Shown here: positions 15,733-19,652 of the stretch, in pieces | Position numbering within the stretch: the first letter of the stretch is position 1 | Layout of the letters: each line of letters starts with the position of its first letter | Origin: Escherichia phage vB_EcoM_UP17 | Direction: 5' to 3' (one strand) | Sequence record: LR746137 | Length of the DNA: 64,000 nucleotides | The notes under the pieces: generated by a model | Told to the model about the DNA's origin: nothing | Seen by the model: only the letters and a program-made list of their open reading frames with translations | Database searches by the model: none | Program-made: the position numbers and the translations under genes

Positions 15733-15845
15733 TTCTTACCTCCTTTATTGTCAAAATAGCTTACCAGAACATCGTGAACCACACATATGGCAAAAATCAG
15801 AACAATTGTTGCCAGGACTGGATTCTCACTAATTAGTGCTATCAT
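15729..15845 (-). CDS. small membrane protein (38 aa; shortened from track ORF)
   Basis: Internal ATG behind GGAGGTGG; MIALISENPVLATIVLIFAICVV hydrophobic core. Confidence 0.3.
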   Translation of the reverse strand: MIALISENPVLATIVLIFAICVVHDVLVSYFDNKGGKK

Positions 15846-16152
15846 CTTTAACCACCTCCAATTGCCTTTCGAGTTTGACTCTGTTTGAGAACTGATAATG
15901 GCACAACTTACATTGCATGTCAACAATCTGATCGTGATTTAACCCTACAATTTTAACTTCCTTTGCACCATCCCACTCCAAATACTCAAAGCCATCCAAA
16001 TGATTACTCTTGTCCAACAGGAATGCTATCTGCTTCCATTCAATCTGAATGTCATTTAAATGATATGCTGCACAGAAGATATCCTCATAGTAAAAGACGA
16101 TCATTGTCATTGCTTCGTCCAGCACAACTACTTCTTGTCTTGTAAATCTCAT
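15829..16152 (-). CDS. hypothetical protein (107 aa), first gene of the minus-strand early unit
   Basis: ATG behind TAGGAGG, adjacent to the AT-rich control region. Confidence 0.4.
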   Translation of the reverse strand: MRFTRQEVVVLDEAMTMIVFYYEDIFCAAYHLNDIQIEWKQIAFLLDKSNHLDGFEYLEWDGAKEVKIVGLNHDQIVDMQCKLCHYQFSNRVKLERQLEVVKDDSTN

Positions 16153-16380
16153 TCTAGCCTCCTAAACGCGTCTCTGACGCACTTTTTATATATAAGATGA
16201 TAAATCACCTTACCTAGTAAGTAAGCTTGCTCTACGAGTCTCTTATGAAGCTTATGTTATAGGCTATACTATTGCTACCTGTTTAAGCAAGGTTTTTGCA
16301 CACAGAAAATAATTTTAATAAAACTCTTGACTTTTGTGTTCGAAGTATGCTACCCTAGAAATCTATTAACGAGCGCAGCG

Positions 16381-16405
16381 AGTTAAGGTTTAAGGTTTAA
16401 GGTTG
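16381..16405. repeat. short tandem repeat (TAAGGTT x3)
   Basis: GTTAAGGTTTAAGGTTTAAGGTTG read directly; followed by TGTACTC repeated three times (16419-16445). Confidence 0.6.
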
Positions 16406-16445
16406 TTGATGTAGTACTCTGTACTCAAGTACTGTACTCCGTACT

Positions 16446-16491
16446 AGATCTAATAATTATTAAATATTAATAATAAATAATTATTAGATCT
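16446..16491. repeat. perfect 16-bp inverted repeat with 14-bp AT spacer
   Basis: AGATCTAATAATTATT (16446-16461) and its exact reverse complement AATAATTATTAGATCT (16476-16491). Confidence 0.75.
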
Positions 16492-16640
16492 AACAGACAG
16501 GTACAGTGTATCAGAACTGGTACGTACAGATCAACTTCTATCAATTAAAAATAAAATAATAAATTATTATAAATAATACTTGATCTATAGATTAGTATGA
16601 AGTACAGTACGGAACATCTTAACAAGAATGGAGGTGTGCA

Positions 16641-16826
16641 ATGATTAGTGAGAATCCGTGCAAATGGCATCATGTGCCTATTAAAGATTGTATGTCTTGT
16701 AATCCACGTTCTATTTATAACATTGCATCTTATGACGATGACAATGTGTTAGACGATGATGAAGGCTGGGAGGATTTAGATTGGACTGGTTATGAAACCA
16801 AAAAGGATAAAATTATTCCTAGTTGA
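16641..16826 (+). CDS. small Cys-rich protein (61 aa)
   Basis: ATG behind GGAGGTG; PCKWHH...CMSCNP Cys/His cluster. Confidence 0.4.
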   Translation: MISENPCKWHHVPIKDCMSCNPRSIYNIASYDDDNVLDDDEGWEDLDWTGYETKKDKIIPS

Positions 16827-17619: not shown

Positions 17620-17691
17620 GGCCCTGTAGCTCAATGGGAGAGCTGTCGGCTCATAACCGATAGGTAGCTGGATCGAAACCAGCCAGGGCCA
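17620..17691 (+). tRNA. tRNA-Met (anticodon CAT)
   Basis: Hand-folded cloverleaf: acceptor GGCCCTG/CAGGGCC, anticodon loop CTCATAA, T-arm GCTGG-ATCGAAA-CCAGC, encoded CCA. Confidence 0.7.
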
Positions 17692-17696
17692 CCAAC

Positions 17697-17768
17697 GTCT
17701 TTATGGTGTAATGGATAGCACAGGAGTCTTCTAAACTCTTAGTCAAGGTTCGATTCCTTGTAAAGACA
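17697..17768 (+). tRNA. tRNA-Arg (anticodon TCT)
   Basis: Acceptor GTCTTTA/TAAAGAC, anticodon stem GGAGT/ACTCT with loop CTTCTAA, T-arm CAAGG-TTCGATT-CCTTG, CCA encoded. Confidence 0.7.
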
Positions 17769-17967
17769 CCAGAACATTTTAACATGAATTAGCTCAAGTG
17801 ATTTGAACCCACTACTGATCATAGTGGCAGAGAATGAGGCAAGTATGTCAGACATTGTAAACAAAGGCCACGGTTACATTAGAAGATATAAATGCTCGAA
17901 GAGCACCGTTCGCTGAGAACGGGGGTTGGTGGAGTCACCATTCATGGTAAAATGTTTTAAAAAACTA

Positions 17968-17996
17968 TTGACAACTAACATTATTTTATGTTAGAT
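17968..17996 (+). promoter_or_regulatory. sigma70-like promoter (TTGACA, TATGTTAGAT)
   Basis: AAAACTATTGACAAC followed 13 nt later by TATGTTAGATTATAAG, 10 nt before tRNA-Ser. Confidence 0.45.
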
Positions 17997-18005
17997 TATA
18001 AGTAT

Positions 18006-18093
18006 GGAAGGGCAAATCGACGTGGTGACGAAAACGGTCTTGAAAACCGCCGAGCTTGAAAGAGCCTTGGGAGTTCGACTCTCCCTCCTTCCG
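18006..18093 (+). tRNA. tRNA-Ser (anticodon TGA), class II
   Basis: Acceptor GGAAGGG/TCCTTCC, anticodon loop CTTGAAA, long variable arm, T-arm GGGAG-TTCGACT-CTCCC, CCA encoded. Confidence 0.7.
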
Positions 18094-18101
18094 CCAGATT
18101 A

Positions 18102-18184
18102 GGTAGATTGGTGAAATGGTAGCCACGACAGTTTGCTAAACTGTAGTCGGAAACGGCGTGTAGGTTCGAGTCCTACATCTACCG
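18102..18184 (+). tRNA. tRNA-Ser (anticodon GCT), class II
   Basis: Acceptor GGTAGAT/ATCTACC, anticodon stem ACAGT/ACTGT with loop TTGCTAA, long variable arm, T-arm GTAGG-TTCGAGT-CCTAC. Confidence 0.7.
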
Positions 18185-18314
18185 CCAAGTTGTTTTTAAT
18201 GTAGCGTTGCGGCTACTTACTTTAGCAGAGTAAATCTTCGGCAAGTGGCGGTAACCACTTTACCGATACCGCATAGTCAGTAAGGCGAATACTGGCTACT
18301 TTAAAAACAATTTT

Positions 18315-18395
18315 GTGAGATTGGCAGAGTGGTCGATTGCGGGGGACTGTAAATCCCTTCTGAAAGGCGCGGTGGTTCGAATCCATCATCTCACA
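18315..18395 (+). tRNA. tRNA-Tyr (anticodon GTA), class II
   Basis: Acceptor GTGAGAT/ATCTCAC, anticodon stem GGGGA/TCCCT with loop CTGTAAA, long variable arm, T-arm GGTGG-TTCGAAT-CCATC. Confidence 0.7.
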
Positions 18396-18404
18396 CCAAA
18401 TTAA

Positions 18405-18487
18405 GATGAGTTGGCTGAATGGTTTAAGCGGCGGACTGTTAATCCGTGTTCGAAAGAACGATATAGGTTCAAATCCTATACTCATCG
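18405..18487 (+). tRNA. atypical class II tRNA, anticodon loop CTGTTAA (reads as GTT, Asn) with 15-nt variable arm
   Basis: Acceptor GATGAGT/ACTCATC, anticodon stem GCGGA/TCCGT, variable region GTTCGAAAGAACGAT, T-arm ATAGG-TTCAAAT-CCTAT; isotype assignment uncertain. Confidence 0.5.
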
Positions 18488-18497
18488 CCAGAATTAT

Positions 18498-18575
18498 GGA
18501 CTTGTAGAGTTAAGGTAAAACCTCCAGTCGCCAAGAGGCTTCTGGAATTGCAGGTATCGAATCCTGCCGAGTCCC
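18498..18575 (+). pseudogene. degenerate tRNA-like element
   Basis: Good 7-bp acceptor GGACTTG/CGAGTCC and T-arm GCAGG...CCTGC, but T-loop is 8 nt (TATCGAAT) and no canonical anticodon arm or CCA could be folded. Confidence 0.3.
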
Positions 18576-18581
18576 AGATTT

Positions 18582-18653
18582 GCTCCTATAGTATAATGGC
18601 TATTACAACGGTTTTGTAATCCGTGGATCTCTGTTCGATTCAGAGTGGGAGCA
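18582..18653 (+). tRNA. tRNA-Thr (anticodon TGT)
   Basis: Acceptor GCTCCTA/TGGGAGC, anticodon loop TTTGTAA, T-arm CTCTG-TTCGATT-CAGAG, CCA encoded. Confidence 0.7.
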
Positions 18654-18929
18654 CCAACACAACATTAAGAGCACTGTGATTGATCGTCGTATCCTGTGCA
18701 CAAGGTCTGTTCGAAAGACAGTGTTCTTAGTATTGTGTTGATCACACAAAGAGTCACCTGAAACTTGACCGGAGTAGGGTTGGATGGGGCAAAAGAAGAA
18801 GCGGCTCTCCCATCGACAGCAACGAAGAATAATATTTGACTTTAGTTTTGTATTATTTTAAGTTAGCTTACCGAACGTAGGGCTAGTCACCCAACGGGAT
18901 ACTCGTCACTGTCCCACTCAATAAAACTA

Positions 18930-18959
18930 TTGACAACCAATAGTAAAATGTAGTATAGT
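18930..18959 (+). promoter_or_regulatory. sigma70-like promoter with extended -10 (TTGACA, TGTAGTATAGT)
   Basis: AAAACTATTGACAACC followed 13 nt later by TGTAGTATAGT, 11 nt before tRNA-Gly. Confidence 0.45.
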
Positions 18960-18970
18960 AAAGATGTAGG

Positions 18971-19041
18971 GCGTTCTTGGTGTAGCGGTAGCATTCCGTC
19001 CTTCCAAGTCGGCGGCACGAGTTCGATCCTCGTAGGACGCT
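18971..19041 (+). tRNA. tRNA-Gly (anticodon TCC)
   Basis: Acceptor GCGTTCT/AGGACGC, anticodon loop CTTCCAA, T-arm ACGAG-TTCGATC-CTCGT, CCA encoded. Confidence 0.65.
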
Positions 19042-19142
19042 CCAAATTATTTAATAAAGGGTTGCCAGAAAACTTTCTCTTTTACTCATGGTTTTCTCCT
19101 TCTCTCACACCTCTTCTGGTTGCCCTTCATTAAATGATTTAT

Positions 19143-19215
19143 TGGTTTGTAGTGTAGTCAGGTAGCACACGACACTTTGACTGTCGTAGGTTTGGTTCAA
19201 ATCCAGACAGACCAG
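19143..19215 (+). tRNA. tRNA-Gln (anticodon TTG)
   Basis: U1-A72 acceptor TGGTTTG/CAGACCA (as in enterobacterial tRNA-Gln), anticodon stem CGACA/TGTCG with loop CTTTGAC, T-arm TTTGG-TTCAAAT-CCAGA, CCA encoded. Confidence 0.65.
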
Positions 19216-19223
19216 CCATATAA

Positions 19224-19297
19224 CGGAATTTAGCTCAGTTTGGTAGAGCATACGCTTTGGGAGCGTAGGGTCGCAGGTTCGAATCCTGCAATTCCGA
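19224..19297 (+). tRNA. tRNA-Pro (anticodon TGG)
   Basis: Acceptor CGGAATT/AATTCCG, anticodon stem TACGC/GCGTA with loop TTTGGGA, T-arm GCAGG-TTCGAAT-CCTGC, CCA encoded. Confidence 0.7.
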
Positions 19298-19306
19298 CCA
19301 ATTTAA

Positions 19307-19377
19307 TGTTTCGTAGTTCAATGGTAGAACCCACGACTGATAATCGTGAGACACAAGTTCGATTCTTGTCGAAACAA
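19307..19377 (+). tRNA. tRNA-Ile (anticodon GAT)
   Basis: Acceptor TGTTTCG/CGAAACA, D-stem GTTC/GAAC, anticodon stem CACGA/TCGTG with loop CTGATAA, T-arm ACAAG-TTCGATT-CTTGT, CCA encoded. Confidence 0.65.
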
Positions 19378-19382
19378 CCAGT

Positions 19383-19452
19383 TTCCCGTTAGACTTACAG
19401 GATAAGAGTTCCACAGCTTATTGTGATGCTGGTTCGAATCCAGCACGGGATA
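19383..19452 (+). pseudogene. degenerate tRNA-like element
   Basis: Canonical T-arm GCTGG-TTCGAAT-CCAGC and 6-bp acceptor, but the anticodon region folds as CACAG-CTTA-TTGTG (4-nt loop) and no CCA is encoded. Confidence 0.3.
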
Positions 19453-19458
19453 CATAAT

Positions 19459-19534
19459 AGCGGGATAGAGGAGTCTGGTCGTCCTCGCCAGTTTCATATG
19501 CTGGAGATCATTGGTTCAAATCCAATTCCCGCCT
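19459..19534 (+). tRNA. tRNA with anticodon CAT (Met or lysidine-type Ile2)
   Basis: Acceptor AGCGGGA/TCCCGCC with mismatched 1:72, D-stem GAGG/CCTC, anticodon stem CCAGT/GCTGG with loop TTCATAT, T-arm ATTGG-TTCAAAT-CCAAT, CCA encoded. Confidence 0.6.
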
Positions 19535-19652
19535 CCAAATATCGCTTGCCAGCGGTATCTTTGAAGAACTTGCCTGGTTCCTTCTAAGATGGAGGGGTGC
19601 GACTCCTTAACGCACAATCATAATAAAGCATTTCAAATTAACAGTATTTATT

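Follow-up and report, generated by a model that had tools for sequence, protein, structure and literature searches.

The 488-bp gap at positions 16153–16640 of Escherichia phage vB_EcoM_UP17 (LR746137), where two divergent gene blocks of this Phapecoctavirus (a phAPEC8-like E. coli phage) meet, is very probably a compound promoter region, its sequence pointing to four sigma-70-type promoters arranged as two back-to-back pairs, P_L1/P_R1 and P_L2/P_R2. Our best explanation overall, to which we give a probability of about 0.4, combines this promoter region with a P_R1 cassette, a promoter fused to a small hairpin box, that acts as a primed initiation site. The Stephanstirmvirinae are widespread coliphages of ~150 kb and therapeutic candidates; in genome records and the open-access literature we found no origin, mapped promoter or regulatory signal for them, nor transcriptome or 5'-end data for members of the group. 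By the window we mean below the whole 64-kb stretch that was analysed.

The gene layout on both sides bears out the divergent arrangement that a preliminary description, made from the letters of the sequence, had given for the gap. The leftward block consists of DNA-metabolism genes, while the rightward block starts with two small ORFs, followed by 11 tRNA genes and then by terminase, head and tail genes. With this content the rightward block is not an "early unit", as the preliminary description had called it. The flanking features are as follows.

15829–16152, minus strand: first leftward gene, 107 aa, PHROG 14390, function unassigned
16163–16158, minus strand: Shine-Dalgarno AGGAGG of this gene
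16168–16180, minus strand: small GC hairpin GCGTCTCTGACGC, also within this gene's 5' leader
16630–16826, plus strand: Shine-Dalgarno GGAGG and first rightward ORF, 61 aa, PHROG 26411, function unassigned
17620–19537: tRNA cluster, downstream of the 61-aa ORF

Homologues of the 107-aa gene mark the equivalent junction in the phi92, Klebsiella and Citrobacter relatives. The hairpin GCGTCTCTGACGC, which on the plus strand reads as a terminator-like site, is kept in the phiWec phages, and by eye a hairpin is also seen at this leader position in phi92 and Citrobacter Tr1. A Pfam scan of seven flanking ORFs gave no family, and their PHROG matches are all of "unknown function". A Seunavirus homologue of the 61-aa ORF does not lie at a divergent junction and is therefore uninformative for comparing the locus; protein-based locus searches of IMG/VR with two flanking ORFs yielded one relative only. 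In an Rfam scan of the region only tRNA reaches the gathering threshold, the long hairpin giving sub-threshold microRNA-like matches, and the related loci and islands gave nothing. The phage also encodes a primase-helicase, a DNA polymerase carrying a 3'-5' exonuclease domain and three DNA methyltransferases.

We infer promoter activity from the following elements.

16197–16224, minus strand: P_L1, weak proximal leftward candidate, TTACTT-16-TATCAT
16263–16290, minus strand: alternative weak leftward candidate, TTGCTT-16-TATAGC
16327–16356, plus strand: P_R1, conserved extended -10 promoter, TTGACT-N15-TGC-TACCCT
16487–16498: GATCTAACAGAC, on the minus strand the predicted start of the P_L2 transcript
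16505–16534, minus strand: P_L2, extended -10 promoter facing P_R1, TTGATC-N15-TGA-TACACT
16540–16579: A/T tract between the back-to-back P_L2 and P_R2, 95% A+T
16580–16608, plus strand: P_R2, proximal rightward promoter, TTGATC-17-TACAGT

Taking as the mark of an extended -10 promoter a -35 element near TTGACA, a spacer of 17±1 bp, a -10 element of the form TANNNT and, one base before it, a TG, both P_R1 (TTGACT-18-(TGC)TACCCT) and P_L2 (TTGATC-18-(TGA)TACACT) fit this class in sequence. The several -35-like boxes noticed earlier in the gap come to three: TTGACT at 16327 and TTGATC at 16580 on the plus strand, and TTGATC at 16534–16529 on the minus strand. The layout is common to five Stephanstirmvirinae lineages, represented by the window, phiWec, phi92, Klebsiella phi1_175008 and Citrobacter Tr1, which retain both hexamers (-35 and -10), the distance between them and the TG motif at equivalent positions with diverged spacers. 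P_L2 has a counterpart at the equivalent position in all five, and its GATCTAACAGAC is conserved in phi92 and Citrobacter Tr1 and occurs in a variant form in phiWec. The A/T tract, likewise present in all lineages, may serve as an UP element, as a DNA-unwinding element or in both roles. The least secure of the four is P_L1, which in the window scores under the threshold and was picked out by eye. The conserved AATCACCTTACCT (16203–16215) overlaps with it, and both Tr1 and the Klebsiella phage (TTGACA-17-TATCAT) have strong promoters at its position. The alternative leftward candidate aligns with TTGTGT-16-TG.TATAGT of the phiWec phages. We count against our overall explanation both the weakness of P_L1 here and the nieznany record, which has no P_L2, the site lying there at an assembly edge.

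Promoter junctions of a similar kind have been described in rV5, from a related group of large myoviruses, where Kropinski et al. (2013) predicted bidirectional sigma-70-like promoter regions at strand switches and tied changes in GC skew to the direction of transcription. The UP17 junction resembles them in its sigma-70-like promoters, several of the extended -10 type, and in a skew that follows transcription, but the hairpin box and the face-to-face inner pair are not described there. The inner promoters, P_R1 with an estimated start at ~16361–16363 and P_L2, converge with an overlap of about 135–140 bp. The temperate coliphages 186 (pR/pL) and P2 (Pe/Pc) have switches built from face-to-face promoters, in which, as predicted here, two promoters fire at each other over a short overlap. 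Such an arrangement makes transcriptional interference possible; UP17, however, is virulent and has no repressor genes at the site.

The P_R1 cassette is completed by two elements just beyond the predicted start.

16366–16386, plus strand: leader hairpin on the P_R1 non-template strand, arms TTAAC and GTTAA
16370–16382, plus strand: invariant box CGAGCGCAGCGAG (CGAGCG-N-AGCGAG), with the GCGNAGC mini-hairpin core at 16373–16379

The whole reads TTGACT-18-TACCCT, then 13 nt, then CGAGCG-N(1-2)-AGCGAG. In the anhysbys genome TG[CG]TACCCTA, 12–16 nt and CGAGCG-N(1-2)-AGCGAG follow one another at 107502 (plus), 35486 (minus) and 69760 (minus); each of the phiWec-like, phi92-like and Klebsiella-type contigs also has three copies, and across the subfamily there are about three per genome. 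A 67-nt cassette query matched 134 phage records at 316 places, and among the matches listed all were Stephanstirmvirinae or close relatives, bar one short partial match, with none in the Vequintavirinae. The 12-nt sequence of the box is invariant across genera and in the three paralogous copies, whereas its surroundings diverge. Variation is confined to the loop (C, A, AT or GG over 12 distinct cassettes), a pattern that is the signature of the GCGNAGC/GCGNNAGC mini-hairpins (G-C-G-N(1-2)-A-G-C with a free loop). In all copies the box has the polarity of the P_R1 transcript. The J2 copy heads a block of ~45 kb with tRNAs and structural genes, the 35.5 kb copy lies near the head of a replication-gene block of ~35 kb, and the third, at 69.8 kb, is aimed antisense at a block of genes and followed by no ORF. 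With three copies per genome of a short, invariant and strand-specific box, each joined to a promoter, there are three exact places for tests of transcription start, R-loop formation, pausing and replication initiation.

The d(GCGNAGC) and d(GCGNNAGC) sequences are known as "extraordinarily stable" DNA mini-hairpins (Hirao et al.), found at the G4 origin or priming site, at the ssiA of RSF1010 and at the N4 early promoters, their RNA versions being much less stable than the DNA ones. The phage box shares the exact core and the expected variability of the loop with these, and differs by a conserved C-GA...GA-G extension. Because the stem is invariant among the phages, they offer no information on covariation; in unrelated bacteria, the core is flanked by at least four Watson-Crick pairs in 22 of 64 occurrences, against 0 of 64 in the control. 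ViennaRNA with DNA parameters gives the hairpin -2.1 kcal/mol or less stable values. This lack of special stability would speak against the primed-initiation reading, but the nearest-neighbour model has no terms for sheared G·A pairs and its energies say little about the box. We know of no N4-type virion RNA polymerase using hairpin promoters in this phage group.

When its free base N is C, the box is identical to a 13-mer of pMB1, located 141 nt beyond the RNA/DNA switch motif of that plasmid and 52 nt beyond its DnaA box. In the plasmids it is set within a portable module of ~75 nt (ColE1/pMB1, IncX) near replication functions. The module also occurs alone in IncX1 and IncX4 plasmids, and in the IncX4 plasmid its surroundings are non-coding and precede the gene of the replication initiator. 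Unlike the phages, the plasmids do covary: the pair C1..G13 becomes G..C in IncX4 and G4..C10 becomes A..T in IncF ColE1-like plasmids, the G·A positions staying fixed, two compensatory changes that speak for a G·A-paired hairpin. The 13-mer is presumably part of ssiA, the primosome assembly site of phiX174 type, an assignment made indirectly from statements in the literature and reportedly in line with Zipursky & Marians (1980) and Nomura et al. (1982). In the literature the n'-pas/ssiA is placed just downstream of the ColE1 origin, close to a DnaA box. The phage box and the ssiA/n'-pas sites of ColE1/pMB1 and IncX have in common the 13-mer, the free loop base, the same predicted hairpin and the polarity of the upstream transcript (the primer RNA in pMB1), which would put the box on the displaced strand. 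They differ in that the phages have the tip of the hairpin only: the remaining ~60 nt of the module are not common to them, and the overlap is 13–14 nt, which we count against the primed-initiation reading. The distances also differ, the phage box standing 13 nt from the -10 element and the plasmid 13-mer ~140 nt beyond the origin. The plasmid 13-mer is ~700 nt from the primer promoter. The plasmid link, with its G·A hairpin covariation, would sharpen which part of ssiA-type sites is structurally essential.

From these data we tentatively propose that the P_R1 cassette is a transcription-primed site of replication or priming. Host RNA polymerase would start at P_R1, and the displaced non-template strand would fold into a compact hairpin with the pairs C1-G13, G4-C10 and C5-G9 and sheared G·A pairs at 2·12, 3·11 and 6·8. 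The purine-rich RNA would remain hybridised, giving an R-loop, the AT-rich stretch downstream would open, and the displaced strand would be loaded with a helicase/primase, which may be the PriA primosome of the host or the phage's own primase-helicase, as at the ssiA downstream of the ColE1 primer RNA. The 13-nt non-B DNA hairpin would in this way act like ssiA, keeping the displaced strand open for the loading of helicase and primase. We count in favour of this the AT-rich stretches found downstream of P_R1 in all lineages, and the position of the gap at the minimum of the cumulative GC skew of the genome, which is equally well explained by the switch in transcription direction there. The spacing of 12–16 nt between -10 element and box was counted against it, as this is expected of a signal coupled to RNA polymerase and is not required of a priming site.

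The proposed site has relatives among phage origins as well. The primary origin of T7 consists of two promoters and an AT-rich region, and oriF and oriG of T4 of a promoter and an unwinding element. UP17 is alike in its tandem rightward promoters followed by stretches of 92–95% A+T, P_R1 being succeeded by 16445–16492 (92%) and 16540–16579 (95% A+T), and in having a phage primase-helicase and DNA polymerase. The differences are that host RNA polymerase is proposed to act here, and that the box on the non-template strand has no known counterpart in T7 or T4.

Two other readings of the box are live rivals, each of which we regard as rather unlikely. In the first, the box would be an ops-like signal, a non-template mini-hairpin formed in the transcription bubble just past P_R1, at which the polymerase pauses and a factor of elongation or antitermination, of NusG type or another and encoded by host or phage, is loaded for the long operons that follow. 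The ops of E. coli forms the non-template hairpin GCGGTAGC, and the opsX sites of Bacteroides are YGCGNAGCR hairpins in operon leaders; the phage boxes, A-GCG-N(1-2)-AGC-G on the non-template strand, thus resemble both the RfaH (ops) and UpxY (opsX) sites in carrying GCGNNAGC or GCGNAGC as a non-template hairpin in an operon leader. The fixed 12–16 nt from the -10 element and the long blocks behind the J2 and 35.5 kb copies would suit such a function. In the phages, however, the 5' neighbour is A instead of Y and the box is much closer to the start, the 12-nt RfaH ops consensus GGCGGTAGCGTG has no match within 3 mismatches in the region, and the loop bases read by RfaH are the variable part of the phage boxes. 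Pfam found no NusG-like factor among the flanking ORFs, the third copy, antisense to its gene block, is followed by no ORF, and this reading does not account for the match to the plasmid module.

In the second, the promoters would be ordinary strong promoters, the box a stem-loop at the 5' end of the RNA shielding the transcripts from RNase E, and the repeats, palindrome and GTAC sites would have arisen neutrally, by slippage and duplication within an AT-rich spacer. The hairpin would indeed start 4–8 nt from the predicted RNA 5' end, the repeats vary in copy number, with indels, among near-identical genomes, and rV5 relatives have been described with plain sigma-70 promoters at such junctions (Kropinski et al. 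2013). A stabilising hairpin, however, needs structure and not an invariant 12-nt sequence across genera and three paralogues; RNA mini-hairpins are much less stable than DNA ones (Hirao et al.), and the 69.8 kb copy has no ORF to shield. The concentration of GTAC is also far beyond chance in an otherwise GTAC-avoiding genome.

The symmetric and repeated elements, on which the preliminary description had built its case for a regulator or initiator site, lie where it had placed them, apart from one count.

16383–16404: TTAAGGT tandem repeat, three copies, 7-bp period
16414–16445: array of five GTACT units, spacing 5–8 bp, clade-specific
16445–16492: AT-rich palindrome, 92% A+T, 17-bp perfect arms and a 14-bp centre
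16583–16592: palindrome ATCTATAGAT, within the -35 element and spacer of P_R2

The inverted repeat had been given as 16 bp, AGATCTAATAATTATT at 16446–16461 with its reverse complement at 16476–16491 and 14 bp between; it is there, and its full perfect length is 17 bp, TAGATCTAATAATTATT (16445–16461 and 16476–16492). It is the longest in the window, the runner-up having 11 bp, and in 2000 dinucleotide-preserving shuffles of the 488 bp (perfect inverted repeats with a loop of at most 30) no repeat of at least 16 bp arose, the maximum being 13. The stem is AT-rich, not GC-rich, and no T-run or U-tract follows on either strand, so that it is not an intrinsic terminator. TAAGGTT (TTAAGGT) does occur three times in tandem, and at least three tandem copies of any 5–9-mer were seen in 7 of the 2000 shuffles. 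The second palindrome, ATCTATAGAT, is present and unique in the window. The count that fails is that of TGTACTC, said to occur three times and found exactly only twice (16420 and 16433), with GTACTC present three times and GTACT five times (16414, 16421, 16429, 16434 and 16441). GTAC clustering is the strongest statistic among these elements: 10 of the 65 GTAC sites in the window (1.0 per kb) fall within 16414–16610, with a Poisson probability of ~3e-14 at the window's own rate, and a complete relative has 151 GTAC against 456–529 expected, the cluster in the gap being by far the densest. A direct repeat spaced by 103 bp (16452–16489 and 16555–16592, 71% identity) was rejected as a duplication; extended, it matches at 34 of 62 positions in low-complexity AT sequence.

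Conservation divides these elements from the promoters and the box. The left arm of the palindrome is one base short in 11 of 11 close relatives, and it is perfect only in the UP17 genome; TTAAGGT copies number 1 to 3 among relatives, and GTACT units are deleted or mutated in some, dw-ec having two fewer and phAPEC8 having lost one GTAC as well as 3 bp from the middle of the palindrome. None of the palindrome, the tandem repeat and the GTACT array was found in the lineages of phiWec, phi92, Klebsiella and Citrobacter. These elements, on the evidence of the alignments, are young, unstable, clade-specific and indel-prone additions and not conserved machinery. The comparison with homologous phages that had been suggested therefore gives a split answer, with the promoters and the hairpin box, which the description had not flagged, conserved and the symmetric and repeated elements not; of the regulator or initiator site, origin or switch, a conserved control region stands, with one conserved element pointing towards a possible origin-type function, but the evidence chosen for it is not conserved. 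That the most striking symmetry of an intergenic region is its least conserved part is a caution. Repeats and palindrome sit in the stretch between P_R1 and P_L2 that would be transcribed from both sides.

A clade-specific role for them is improbable in our view. The palindrome and the GTAC(T)/GTACAG sites would then be operators of a dimeric regulator of this clade, or targets of a GTAC methyltransferase, tuning P_R1 and P_L2 as a methylation or repressor switch. Left of the palindrome there are two CTGTAC sites and right of it three GTACAG sites, the two sets being inverted to each other, GTAC lies in the spacer and start region of P_L2 and in the -10 and start region of P_R2, and the centre of the GTACT array (~16429.5) is the midpoint of the estimated start sites of the facing P_R1 and P_L2. 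The three phage methyltransferases, and genome-wide G-to-A changes at GTAC in one relative's record, which hint at a modified site, would fit as well. Against this, sister clades with the same promoter layout have none of the elements, dw-ec and phAPEC8 show the losses given above, the palindrome is imperfect in all 11 relatives examined, and no known regulator gene stands beside the region.

A classical origin, with iterons and/or DnaA boxes and an unwinding element, is very improbable. The AT-rich stretches, short direct repeats and skew minimum would agree with one, as would the sole relaxed DnaA-box match of the motif scan, TTTTGCACA (16294–16302, plus strand), which is a weak lead at most. 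The repeats, however, are of 5–7 bp, irregularly spaced, variable in number and not conserved, no initiator-like gene adjoins, and neither conserved iterons nor clustered DnaA boxes were found at the region, which has no strict DnaA box, no oriC 13-mer and only partial matches to IHF and boxA. A minus-strand sequence resembling boxA with 3 mismatches, CGCTCGTTAATAG, was set aside; LexA and NarL sites, considered by eye, were not supported. A packaging site (pac or cos) heading the structural module, with repeats like those of P1 pac round an AT-rich core, is less probable still. The terminase gene is ~4.5 kb downstream, and two groups of a repeated 4–6-mer do surround an AT-rich centre, but in Schickermooser, whose reads end abruptly at defined points with a 328-bp terminal repeat at which the record is linearised, the region is at 54.5 kb of 151 kb, that is 54 kb from the termini, and the motifs are missing in sister clades. 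We regard these mapped termini as ruling out a packaging site.

Extending the primed-initiation reading to all copies, we suggest, with much reserve, that the three cassettes per genome may be replication start sites of phi92/phAPEC8-like phages, and that enterobacterial integrase/primase islands with the cassette may be satellites copying the signal. The pattern TACCCTA-N10-20-GAGCGMAGCGAG had 66 matches in 596 Gb of bacterial genomes, about the number estimated for chance, so that most are not homologues; levivirus matches and a podovirus-like group in IMG/VR were put down to chance or convergence as well. E. coli chromosomes showed nothing similar to the gap or to the cassette of the islands. 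Among the bacterial matches the whole cassette was present only in islands of Citrobacter and Buttiauxella.

The window belongs to a Phapecoctavirus (phAPEC8-like; Stephanstirmvirinae), and the 1.2 kb surrounding the 488-bp intergenic gap at 16153-16640 matches some 60 E. coli phage records at 95-99% identity. The gene layout of anhysbys, a complete relative, bears out the preliminary description of two divergent gene blocks. In the leftward block, about 34 kb long, lie genes of nucleotide and DNA metabolism, among them those for ligase, ribonucleotide reductase, exonucleases and methyltransferases. The rightward block carries, in order, two small ORFs, 10-11 tRNA genes and then terminase, head and tail genes, which is not the content of the early unit that had been proposed there. 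In the window, 11 tRNA genes (Met, Arg, Ser, Tyr, Asn, Thr, Gly, Gln, Pro, Ile and Met) lie directly 3' of the gap at 17620-19537, and they are presumably transcribed from the predicted rightward promoters P_R1 and P_R2.

A simple sigma-70 weight-matrix scan of five lineages (the window clade, phiWec, phi92, Klebsiella phi1_175008 and Citrobacter Tr1) predicts one common layout, made up of P_R1, a leftward promoter facing it 75-150 bp downstream, a stretch of 40-45 bp that is nearly all A/T, and P_R2. For the proximal leftward promoters the prediction is weak in the window but strong in the phages of Klebsiella and Citrobacter. We regard it as settled in outline that the gap serves as a compound promoter region, in which two predicted promoters point outward and two inward; in kind it is an ordinary phage promoter junction.

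Elements of the gap (window coordinates)
16327-16356, plus strand: predicted promoter P_R1, TTGACT-18-TG.TACCCT
16370-16382: box, CGAGCG-N-AGCGAG
16445-16461 and 16476-16492: perfect inverted repeat, 17-bp arms, 14-bp centre
16534-16505, minus strand: predicted promoter P_L2, TTGATC-18-TG.TACACT, facing P_R1
16580-16608, plus strand: predicted promoter P_R2, TTGATC-17-TACAGT, with the first rightward gene's ribosome-binding site about 30 nt further on

The symmetric elements that had suggested a regulator or initiator site were all found at their reported positions. The inverted repeat is perfect, with arms of 17 bp instead of the 16 bp claimed; no perfect inverted repeat in the 64 kb is longer, and when the gap was shuffled 2000 times with dinucleotides preserved, one of at least 16 bp never appeared. 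Three tandem copies of TTAAGGT are also unusual (comparable in 7 of the 2000 shuffles). TGTACTC, described as threefold, occurs exactly only twice, but GTACTC is present three times and GTACT five times. GTAC is a strongly avoided tetramer in this phage (1.0 per kb; 151 sites against 456-529 expected in the 149-kb anhysbys genome, about 3-fold under-represented), and the 10 sites that fall in a 200-bp stretch inside the gap form the densest cluster of the genome. A second reported palindrome, ATCTATAGAT, falls in the -35 element and spacer of predicted P_R2. The tandem repeat, the GTACT array and the 17-bp palindrome all fall in the interval bounded by the start sites of the facing predicted promoters P_R1 and P_L2, and the array is centred exactly on the midpoint of that interval.

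Conservation in homologous phages holds for the promoters and the box, but not for the repeats and the palindrome, which are variable or absent. In an alignment of 12 Phapecoctavirus genomes, the C at 16450 is missing from all 11 others, so that the palindrome is bulged everywhere but in the window genome; TTAAGGT varies from 1 to 3 copies with a period of 7 or 8 bp, in phAPEC8 the centre of the palindrome is missing 3 bp and one GTAC has gone, and dw-ec lacks two GTACT units. No GTACT array, TTAAGGT tandem or comparable palindrome was found at the homologous junction of the phiWec clade, phi92, phi1_175008 or Tr1. Judged by this comparison, the three are young, unstable elements. The facing P_R1 and P_L2 start sites are about 40 bp wider apart in the window clade than in the other lineages, which fits a local insertion or expansion. 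These elements could modulate the facing promoters, for example through GTAC methylation; since sister clades lack them, an essential role is unlikely.

The most conserved part of the gap is P_R1 with the next 30 nt, that is, a predicted promoter and box at fixed spacing (the cassette). Searching viral contigs with TACCCTA-N-GAGCGMAGCGAG and its two-base-loop variant gave the consensus TG[CG]TACCCTA, 12-16 nt, CGAGCG-N(1-2)-AGCGAG, with a -35 element ahead of it, TTGAC[AT] (TTTTAC in two copies). Each lineage has three cassettes per genome; the 64-kb window contains one.

Cassettes of anhysbys
107.5 kb: cassette 1, at the junction homologous to the gap
35.5 kb, minus strand: cassette 2, near the head of the replication-gene block
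69.8 kb, minus strand: cassette 3, in an ORF-free gap of 360 bp, oriented antisense to its own block

A 67-nt cassette query matched 316 places in 134 phage records, and all the matches listed belong to Stephanstirmvirinae or close relatives, except one short partial match. The -35 element, TG, TACCCTA, the spacing and the box are constant between copies and the remainder is divergent; within the box only the loop varies (C, A, AT or GG). None of the annotations and papers searched describes the cassette or the box; the box sequences matched unrelated papers only, and records leave the gap unannotated or place a 'repeat_region' over the palindrome. What is new here is a subfamily-wide predicted promoter fused to a mini-hairpin of the ssiA/ops type.

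The box can form its hairpin on one strand only, and in every cassette this is the promoter's non-template strand. Its pattern of variation fits the GCGNAGC/GCGNNAGC DNA mini-hairpin, a fold closed by a sheared G·A pair, with the loop bases free to vary; the box extends this fold by a tandem G·A/A·G step plus one C-G pair. A live if rather unlikely reading is an ops-like signal for polymerase loading or pausing; in its favour are the fixed 12-16-nt distance from the -10 element and a likeness to the hairpins of ops (GCGGTAGC) and of Bacteroides opsX (YGCGNAGCR). The box could equally be a plain 5' RNA stem-loop, which we also keep as a live rival, while doubting it.

The 13-mer of the box also occurs in pMB1/ColE1-type origins with the strand polarity of the primer RNA; in pMB1 it lies 141 nt past the RNA/DNA switch motif and 52 nt past the DnaA box. 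It is embedded in a module of about 75 nt common to thousands of plasmids, which is also present alone in IncX1 and IncX4 plasmids; in the IncX4 plasmid it occupies non-coding sequence, upstream of the gene for the replication initiator. Across the compared plasmids the G·A positions are invariant and the loop base is either C or T. Pair 1-13 switches from C-G to G-C and pair 4-10 from G-C to A-T, two independent compensatory changes that match the proposed fold exactly. According to the literature, ColE1 has an n'-pas/ssiA primosome assembly site just downstream of the origin, close to the DnaA box, which becomes single-stranded as DNA polymerase I extends the primer, and we infer that the plasmid 13-mer lies inside ssiA.

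Our favoured, still tentative reading, to which we give a probability of roughly 30%, is that the cassette box is a transcription-primed initiation site. Host polymerase would initiate at P_R1, the displaced strand would fold, the purine-rich RNA would stay hybridised, the downstream AT-rich DNA would open, and a helicase/primase would be loaded. The T7 and T4 oriF/G origins likewise pair a promoter with an AT-rich stretch, and ColE1 would be similar in logic. If this is true, the earlier suggestion of an origin gains a basis, through an element that had not been listed. GC skew does not discriminate; its minimum at the gap coincides with the strand switch of transcription, to which the minimum in rV5 is likewise tied. 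A packaging site is excluded: the ends of the Schickermooser genome are defined, with a terminal repeat of 328 bp, and they lie 54 kb from this region.

Cassette 3 of anhysbys (69,630-69,990, minus strand; about 19630-19990 of contig L120) fires antisense into its ORF-free gap and is followed 3' by conserved hairpins, CTCAC-GATA-GTGAG and GGTAGATA...TATCTACC. The locus is conserved in phiWec-, phi92- and Klebsiella-type contigs (L126, L124 and L122) and may be an unannotated small RNA. The cassette also stands directly after an integrase gene in islands of IMG/VR contig L035 (4700-5650), the Citrobacter sp. OP27 chromosome and a Buttiauxella MAG, followed by about 900 ORF-free nt with a TTTCATGTTA hairpin resembling one at phage cassette 3. 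L035, the longest of the three, has D5-type primase/helicase-like (as read from sequence), resolvase-like and cytosine methyltransferase-like ORFs. These islands may be satellites of Stephanstirmvirinae phages. Pattern matches antisense to the replicase in levivirus-like IMG/VR contigs with maturation, coat and replicase genes (L022, L034, L045, L047) were judged to be chance.

Among 64 chance-level occurrences of the box core in unrelated bacteria, 22 have at least 4 complementary flanking bases (0/64 in the control), so hairpins tipped by this core are common in nature. GAGCG[AC]AGCGA tips short perfect hairpins, for example GTCATTCC-GAGCGAAGCGA-GGAATCT, in many unrelated bacteria, from Dehalococcoidia, Acidobacteriota, Bacteroidota and Alphaproteobacteria (loci L052-L117), apparently a family of dispersed repeat hairpins.

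Within the gap, the TTAAGGT repeat ends in an SD-like AAGG that is followed, 6 nt on, by a minimal start-stop ORF, ATG TAG (16409-16414; noted at 16405-16414). Close relatives retain this ORF and other clades lack it. GATCTAACAGAC at 16487-16498 is conserved across genera. GATC (Dam) sites lie at 16447, 16487, 16529 and 16582, and by eye each lineage has 3-5 at the junction; 4 per 250 bp is equalled at several other places in the window, making the enrichment modest. The nieznany record (MN850598.1) begins inside the 61-aa first rightward ORF and repeats part of the gap at both ends, one copy lacking 69 bp (window 16507-16575, P_L2 included), and the 130-kb EP57 record lacks 16593-16630; both deletions may be assembly artefacts near AT-rich palindromic sequence.

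When the BI-EHEC record (OL505078.1, 38600-88500; L118) is compared with window 1-52000, 45 GTAC sites can be aligned and 24 of them differ in BI-EHEC, usually by G to A on either strand; such differences run throughout the genome, and at other 4-base palindromes the rate is 6-13%. The pattern suggests either systematic base-calling errors at a modified motif or selection acting against GTAC. Among the phage's genes are those for three putative DNA methyltransferases (N6-adenine, Dcm-like and one other) and for a dTDP-rhamnose pathway, a pathway which Olsen et al. suggested might serve DNA modification.
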